From Escherichia coli (GTDB lineage: Bacteria; Pseudomonadota; Gammaproteobacteria; Enterobacterales; Enterobacteriaceae), in the NCBI RefSeq assembly GCF_041886205.1, contig NZ_CP169029.1: a DNA stretch of 64,000 nucleotides; one strand, written 5' to 3'. The translations under genes and the position numbers were made by a program. Below are positions 10,904 to 11,085 of this stretch, in pieces (position 1 is the first letter of the stretch; the number at the start of each line of letters is the position of its first letter). The notes beneath the pieces are model-generated. The model searched no databases. It was given only the letters and a program-made list of their open reading frames with translations, and was not told the DNA's origin.

Positions 10904-10969
10904 CGTGGGTTTTCCCCAATAGGTCGCAATGCGGCGAAAGCCGGTGTCATGAGAATAGCGATCATACCA

Positions 10970-11085
10970 TCAAACTAGTACAATTTCGATTGTAAAGAAA
11001 AAATTCCACTTAAAGTGAAAATCTCAATACATCCCTTACTATACCAATAAATATTCAAGAATGAAGTGTAAATAATAAATTACAT
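10970..11085 (-). promoter_or_regulatory. aroL promoter region with TyrR-box-like and TrpR half-site-like motifs
   Basis: TGTAAATAATAAATTACA (TGTAAA-N6-TTTACA-like) near 11067-11084 and AACTAGTAC near 10973-10981, upstream of the aroL start. Confidence 0.5.

Follow-up and report, generated by a model that had tools for sequence, protein, structure and literature searches.

The 182 bp at positions 10904-11085 of the window (the whole 64-kb stretch of DNA that was analyzed, to which all coordinates marked w refer) serve, with a probability of about 0.9, as the minus-strand promoter-operator of aroL(-yaiA-aroM), a transcription unit of E. coli. The aroL control region with its TyrR and TrpR sites is well studied and already known. 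It is said to have been described for E. coli K-12 by DeFeyter et al. in 1986, Heatwole and Somerville in 1992, and Lawley and Pittard in 1994, and the locus here is the same one, with the same order of a distal strong TyrR box, the promoter, a weak TyrR box, a proximal strong TyrR box, and the TrpR site. Nothing of substance distinguishes it from K-12, the one differing base (w11032) lying at the aroL start mapped in strain EDL933. A textbook operator was thus correctly recognized from raw sequence by the sequence-only reading, and exact coordinates can now be given for all of its parts. The less expected part of the finding is a second, weaker aroL start, designated P2. To our knowledge, the classical description of aroL uses one promoter, P1, and it is the start-site maps that add the second start, at -50.

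The interval comprises the entire intergenic DNA between the stop codon of yaiI and the ATG of aroL (w10903). The genes annotated around the locus are proC, yaiI, aroL, and yaiA; apart from proC, they occupy the window's minus strand. The strand of the sequence-only reading is corrected accordingly: aroL is on the minus strand, and the region reads from right to left. The elements that frame it are as follows.

w10379-10903, minus strand: aroL coding sequence (shikimate kinase II, 174 aa), an open reading frame that corresponds to K-12 b0388 and is annotated at 100% identity
w11086-11544, minus strand: yaiI coding sequence (DUF188), with its stop codon TAA at w11088-11086
w10912-10917, minus strand: aroL Shine-Dalgarno sequence GGGGAA, read from the sequence and 0.90 conserved

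The Pfam family SKI is found on the aroL homologues. The 1.4 kb around the interval matches several E. coli chromosomes at 100% identity and was found in 5,425 of 5,426 complete genomes. The 182 bp depart from K-12 MG1655 only at w11032, where K-12 has G in place of A; this is also the sole difference across the 231 nt compared (w10880-11110). The K-12 RefSeq record at this locus carries CDS features only, with no binding-site features. A scan found no terminator-like site between yaiI and aroL, and consequently read-through from yaiI into aroL is possible. The distal TyrR box starts 1 base past the yaiI stop codon (w11085-11090), and from this position TyrR could perhaps affect such read-through as well.

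Transcription of aroL starts at two places for which promoter elements can be assigned.

w11038-11046, minus strand: extended -10 element of P1, TGGTATAGT, with TG at w11046-11045 and TATAGT at w11043-11038, 7-8 nt upstream of the start
w11030-11032, minus strand: P1 start, 127-129 nt upstream of the ATG (G at w11030 in K-12, A at w11032 in EDL933)
w10984-10989, minus strand: -35-like hexamer of P2, TCGAAA, aligned with TTAACG or TTAACA in relatives
w10961-10969, minus strand: extended -10 element of P2, TGGTATGAT, which shares bases with the right half of the TrpR site and is 0.96 conserved in the close genera
w10953-10954, minus strand: P2 start, 50-51 nt upstream of the ATG, present in Cappable-seq of K-12 and EDL933 and in RegulonDB

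The P1 start was mapped by Kim 2012 at 405502, with 136 reads and a 127-nt leader, which corresponds to w11030 (PMC3415461; coordinates are those of NC_000913 as in the 2012 supplement, with aroL at 405629-406153). K-12 Cappable-seq places it at the same base (RRS 4.74, log2 enrichment 6.23) and gives the P2 start at 405579, 50 nt upstream of the ATG (RRS 7.35, enrichment 3.87). The aroL starts of RegulonDB v10.5 are at 125 and 50 nt, and those from EDL933 Cappable-seq are at 129, 78, 51, and 50 nt (table in PMC10469882). The P2 start is not listed by Kim 2012 (PMC3415461), and the transcription-start supplements of the ROSE paper and of Romero 2014 contain nothing for aroL. No good match to a -35 hexamer was found for P1. 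A blind promoter scan returned one promoter-like site, TCGAAA-17-TATGAT, which has 9/12 matches plus TG and is P2; the start at w10953 is 8 nt downstream of TATGAT in TCGAAA-17-TGGTATGAT. Both promoters have the extended -10 configuration of sigma-70, in which TGnTAnnnT precedes a mapped 5'-triphosphate start by 6-8 nt.

The single base that separates this DNA from K-12 is also worth noting in connection with P1. At w11032 the A found here is the base of O157 strains and is the exact aroL start in O157:H7 EDL933, at 129 nt rather than the 127 nt of K-12. Since the polymorphism falls on the EDL933 start base, it may have moved the P1 start by 2 nt.

Candidate TyrR boxes were scored by the number of arm matches, out of 12, to the 18-bp palindrome TGTAAA-N6-TTTACA. 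Among known sites, a strong box has at least 10/12 matches and an invariant G-N14-C, and a weak box (<10/12) requires an adjacent strong box (PMC4374768). The aroL region holds boxes of both published classes, and G at position 2 and C at position 17 are kept in all three of them.

w11084-11067, minus strand: distal strong TyrR box TGTAATTTATTATTTACA, 11/12 with G-N14-C, at -54 to -37 of P1 (centre -45.5); this is the box of the sequence-only reading
w11031-11014, minus strand: weak TyrR box TGTATTGAGATTTTCACT, 8/12 with G-N14-C, at -1 to +17 of P1 (centre +8.5)
w11008-10991, minus strand: proximal strong TyrR box TGGAATTTTTTCTTTACA, 10/12 with G-N14-C, at +23 to +40 of P1 (centre +31.5)

The distal, weak, and proximal boxes are presumably box 3, box 2, and box 1, respectively, of Lawley and Pittard 1994. 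The distal box had been quoted as the plus-strand motif TGTAAATAATAAATTACA with one mismatch to TGTAAANNNNNNTTTACA; it is found in its place, at w11067-11084, and the mismatch is at position 13 (A for T). The proximal box TGGAATTTTTTCTTTACA and the weak box TGTATTGAGATTTTCACT go beyond that reading, and both are in the leader. The two strong boxes bracket P1, the distal one just ahead of the -35 region and the proximal one early in the leader, and form a direct repeat at a spacing of 76 bp; the weak box is 23 bp from the proximal strong box, centre to centre. Relative to P2, the proximal strong box is at -55 to -38.

The motif quoted as a TrpR half site, AACTAGTAC on the plus strand at w10973-10981, is likewise confirmed. 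As GTACTAGTT/AACTAGTAC it occurs in a single copy in the 64-kb window, where 0.16 would be expected by chance, and in the TrpR crystal complex 1TRO one half of the trp operator DNA, TGTACTAGTTAACTAGTACA, has exactly the sequence AACTAGTAC. Beyond what had been noticed, the motif belongs to a full-length 18-bp site, the second half of which is degenerate.

w10981-10964, minus strand: TrpR-type operator GTACTAGTTTGATGGTAT, 18 bp, at +50 to +67 of P1 and -28 to -11 of P2

Compared with the palindrome GTACTAGTT.AACTAGTAC, the left half of GTACTAGTTTGATGGTAT matches at 9/9 positions and the right half at 4/9, for 13/18 overall. A TrpR operator has two CTAG cores; only one is present here, and the second position reads ATGG. 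The relatives have GTGG or ATGA at that position and never CTAG in any species compared. Because the second core is never present, the affinity for TrpR should be low. The site adjoins the proximal TyrR box, being 27 bp further downstream, and is clear of the core elements of P1 but overlaps those of P2, if P2 is counted as a promoter. The placement of the motifs in the "aroL leader", as the sequence-only reading had it, therefore holds for the TrpR site; the quoted TyrR box is outside the leader and upstream of the promoter, because the mapped start is 127-129 nt upstream of the ATG. That reading had also put aroL under the control of TyrR and TrpR, and repression of the gene by both is documented (PMC5343134).

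In all, 11 yaiI-aroL intergenic loci from at least eight genera of Enterobacteriaceae were compared; the ten other loci, gathered through AroL homologues and the contigs that encode them, come from an 87%-identical Escherichia, three Citrobacter, a Salmonella-like locus, Intestinirhabdus, the Enterobacter cloacae complex, Kosakonia, Phytobacter, and Lelliottia. By alignment, conservation within the intergenic region of the other genera is highest in the TyrR and TrpR motifs. The distal box (9-11/12) is present in 11/11 loci, with its arms 1.00 conserved in close relatives, and the proximal box (9-12/12) in 10/11. A TrpR-type site is found in 9/11 loci, always 27-28 bp from the proximal TyrR box. 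Among the five close genera, identity is 0.80-1.00 for the box arms, 1.00 for GTACTAGTT, and 0.89 and 0.96 for the TGnTATnnT elements of P1 and P2, respectively, the conserved P1 element (TGnTATAGT) being that of Citrobacter, the Salmonella-like locus, and Intestinirhabdus. In the same genera, identity is just 0.25-0.57 in the spacers, in the weak box, and elsewhere in the leader. The weak box is found at the same position in Escherichia only, and its conservation of 0.51 is no higher than that of the spacers. Wherever both strong boxes are present (10 loci), they are 74-77 bp apart. The DNA between the boxes is no longer alignable in Kosakonia, Phytobacter, and Lelliottia (0.29-0.48 identity), and the spacing is still held. 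The retention of this distance despite the divergence of the intervening DNA argues for a constraint on spacing, as bridging or looping would predict. The view that the quoted motifs are the expected aroL operators is thus borne out by the gene, which is 100% identical to aroL, by the published box classes, and by the conservation of the blocks across genera. A RegPrecise-based prediction assigns TyrR to aroL in 10 Enterobacteriales genomes and TrpR to aroL in 4 (PMC5343134).

These sites are positioned and conserved as a model of repression by bridging requires, and TyrR probably binds and loops this DNA. In this model, dimers of TyrR would sit on the two strong boxes, as established knowledge of TyrR and the work of Lawley and Pittard 1994 suggest. 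In that work, the aroL TyrR boxes are said to be bound by TyrR, mutation of the boxes reportedly relieves regulation, and boxes 1 and 3 are reported to be essential and box 2 to be dispensable. These reported requirements agree with the pattern of conservation here, in which the weak box, presumably box 2, is the one not conserved. With tyrosine and ATP, conditions under which the TyrR hexamer forms (PMC4374768), a hexamer would bridge the strong boxes, with the weak box filled too. The bridging TyrR would then loop out or cover the core of P1, and RNA polymerase would be blocked. In agreement with repression by TyrR, a tyrR knock-down raises aroL expression in a CRISPRi study (bioRxiv 10.64898/2025.12.20.695731). 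TrpR bound to tryptophan might add a small extra repression at its low-symmetry site, visible only while TyrR acts. Protection of DNA by TrpR with tryptophan and trpR-dependent repression at aroL are reported in the literature of the 1990s. An IHF site at aroL has also been proposed in the literature; a search of the region for the IHF core WATCAANNNNTTR with at most one mismatch found none on either strand. Given P2, a model with a single promoter in a loop is incomplete.

The existence of P2 leads to another explanation of how TrpR acts. The TrpR site could primarily be the operator of P2, such that TrpR blocks P2 by occlusion without touching TyrR. The dependence of tryptophan repression on TyrR would then be only apparent, P2 becoming visible once TyrR shuts the stronger P1, and the TyrR-TrpR "synergism" at aroL would be promoter arithmetic rather than cooperation between the two proteins. 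This explanation is possible, and it is put forward tentatively as the less probable account. Several observations are in its favor. The TrpR site covers -28 to -11 of P2, including the TG and the first -10 bases, and the promoter itself came from the blind scan. The triphosphate-specific start is exactly 8 nt past the P2 -10 in both K-12, where its RRS of 7.35 compares with 4.74 for P1, and EDL933, and RegulonDB has the start at 50 nt. Furthermore, the right half keeps TG and TAT, determinants of the promoter, unchanged across genera, and never has the CTAG critical for TrpR. The degenerate TrpR half would consequently be so well conserved because it is the -10 of P2. Lawley and Pittard 1994 are also said to have found that inserting 4 bp between box 1 and the TrpR site increases tyrosine repression and abolishes the tryptophan effect. 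The interval between the two (w10990-10982) is the -35 of P2 and the beginning of its spacer, and loss of P2 would give this phenotype. Against this, the -50 start is absent from Kim 2012, both Cappable-seq signals are weak, and the conservation of TGGTATGAT is inseparable from that of the TrpR site. In addition, TyrR is said to have slightly enhanced TrpR protection in vitro, a result that favors some direct cooperation. Finally, an effect of TrpR on aroL was undetectable by trpR knock-down under the conditions of the 2025 CRISPRi study (bioRxiv 10.64898/2025.12.20.695731).

The two promoters share a geometry, in which a strong TyrR box has its centre about 46 bp upstream and the extended -10 reads TGGTATrrT. 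An origin by tandem duplication of a module consisting of a TyrR box and a promoter was considered and rejected. Two 68-nt modules, boxes included, align better than any of 2,000 shuffles; without the boxes, the remainder is not significant, as 205 of 2,000 shuffles score as well. A duplication is therefore not supported, and there is no evidence of one beyond the shared functional motifs.

A second alternative to bridging concerns TyrR itself. TyrR at the weak and proximal boxes (centres +8.5 and +31.5) might suffice as a roadblock to promoter escape or elongation from P1, with the distal box doing other work, such as contact with polymerase or control of yaiI read-through. Two boxes are indeed downstream of the P1 start, one of them covering +1, and yaiI and aroL have no terminator between them. 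However, the distal box is the most conserved element (11/11 loci) and is reported to be essential for repression, and a distance of 74-77 bp held amid diverging sequence is hard to explain if the boxes act independently. A roadblock of this kind is consequently quite improbable, and the bridging of the two strong boxes by TyrR remains the preferred reading.

The remaining explanation was addressed by shuffling the 182 bp 200,000 times with dinucleotides preserved, a procedure that controls for their A+T content. Two or more strong boxes arose in 10 of these shuffles, the 9-mer TrpR half site in 96, and both together in 0. That the motifs are functionless chance matches in AT-rich intergenic DNA is effectively refuted by these shuffles and by cross-genus conservation: although the region is 65% A+T (48% in the window), about 2.2 consensus matches with at most two mismatches are expected per 64 kb, and the TrpR half site by itself turned up in 15 of 100 whole-window shuffles, conservation across genera singles out the motifs as islands within the region and aroL is a documented target of TyrR and TrpR (PMC5343134). 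In the 64-kb window, there are 3 boxes of the strong class (at least 10/12 with G-N14-C), two of them within these 182 bp. The third, AGTAAATACTCGCTTACA at w298-315 (10/12 with G-N14-C), is inside the coding sequence of sbcC; it is best read as a chance match and was used as a background control. The weak box is not significant alone, because the window holds 82 sites of like quality.

Other promoters controlled by the same regulators provide a comparison. tyrP, aroF-tyrA, aroP, and the akr-ipdC promoter of Enterobacter cloacae share with aroL the 18-bp boxes, the G-N14-C, and a weak box beside a strong one, and the tyrosine-dependent hexamer model of TyrR-repressed promoters requires several boxes (PMC4374768). 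Unlike these, aroL has two strong boxes 76 bp apart around the promoter core, a weak box that is unconserved outside Escherichia, and a TrpR site adjoining the proximal box. The TrpR operators of trpEDCBA, aroH, trpR, and mtr share with the aroL site the GTACTAGTT half and, if P2 is counted, the overlap with a promoter core. The aroL site differs from them in matching at 13/18 positions, with one good half and the second CTAG absent, and in its location at +50 to +67 of P1, rather than over the -35 or -10.

aroL is routinely deregulated in strains engineered for the production of aromatic compounds. Two start sites, each with its own repressor site, would show engineers which bases to change. 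If the tentative explanation of TrpR action through P2 were true, what has looked for thirty years like cooperation between repressors would become tandem promoters with separate operators.

The comparison of loci also revealed variation in how the sites are used. In the Enterobacter cloacae complex locus (positions 1046-1215 of L128), the intergenic region is much shorter, with about 130 bp missing relative to its relatives, and both the proximal TyrR box and the TrpR-type site are absent. A single strong box is left, TGCAATCATTTCTTTACA, at 46 bp from the ATG. In Enterobacter, Phytobacter, and Lelliottia, a weak box beginning with AGTAAAGTTAAC (8/12 with G-N14-C) is found exactly 23 bp upstream of the distal box. 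This is the spacing of box 2 and box 1 in E. coli, but at the other side of the region. In Klebsiella pneumoniae, the mapped aroL start is 3 nt past TGCAATGATAAGTTTACA, the homologue of the distal TyrR box (Kim 2012, PMC3415461), and this homologue thus overlaps the -10 rather than being located at -45. Enterobacter, Kosakonia, Phytobacter, and Lelliottia have no TGnTATAGT element of P1 and have in common a TTGTCA...GTAAAGTTA block upstream of the box. The position of the promoter appears to have shifted between clades, while the pair of boxes was kept.

Two further starts have been recorded within the region. The EDL933 Cappable-seq start at 78 nt corresponds to w10981, the first base of the TrpR site, and 8 nt upstream of it is a good -10 sequence, TACAAT, which the proximal TyrR box supplies with its right arm (w10989-10994, minus strand). 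K-12 Cappable-seq has no counterpart of this start between 405510 and 405569. A very weak antisense start on the plus strand at about w10992, supported by 4 reads, was attributed to proC, for which it would give a leader of 672 nt (Kim 2012, PMC3415461). The -10 of this start would be TACAAT, within the TrpR site but on its opposite strand, and Cappable-seq did not reproduce the start.

A 142-nt stretch of transcript that begins at the P1 start and runs 14 nt beyond the ATG folds with no unusual stability (z = -1.5), and RNAalifold found no supported consensus structure for the aroL leader. An Rfam match to GcvB was below threshold (19 bits compared with a gathering score of 42) and was judged to be noise in AT-rich DNA. 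In most genera, a small G+C-rich hairpin is located 15-35 nt upstream of the aroL ATG (w10924-10943, minus strand). RNAalifold gives no consensus for it because the loop lengths differ. Its stems differ as well, being CCGCA/TGCGG in Citrobacter koseri, CUGCG/CGCAG at the Salmonella-like locus, and an 8-bp stem of the CCUGCA type in Kosakonia. In E. coli, the best local fold at the position of the hairpin is CGGC-UUUC-GCCG.
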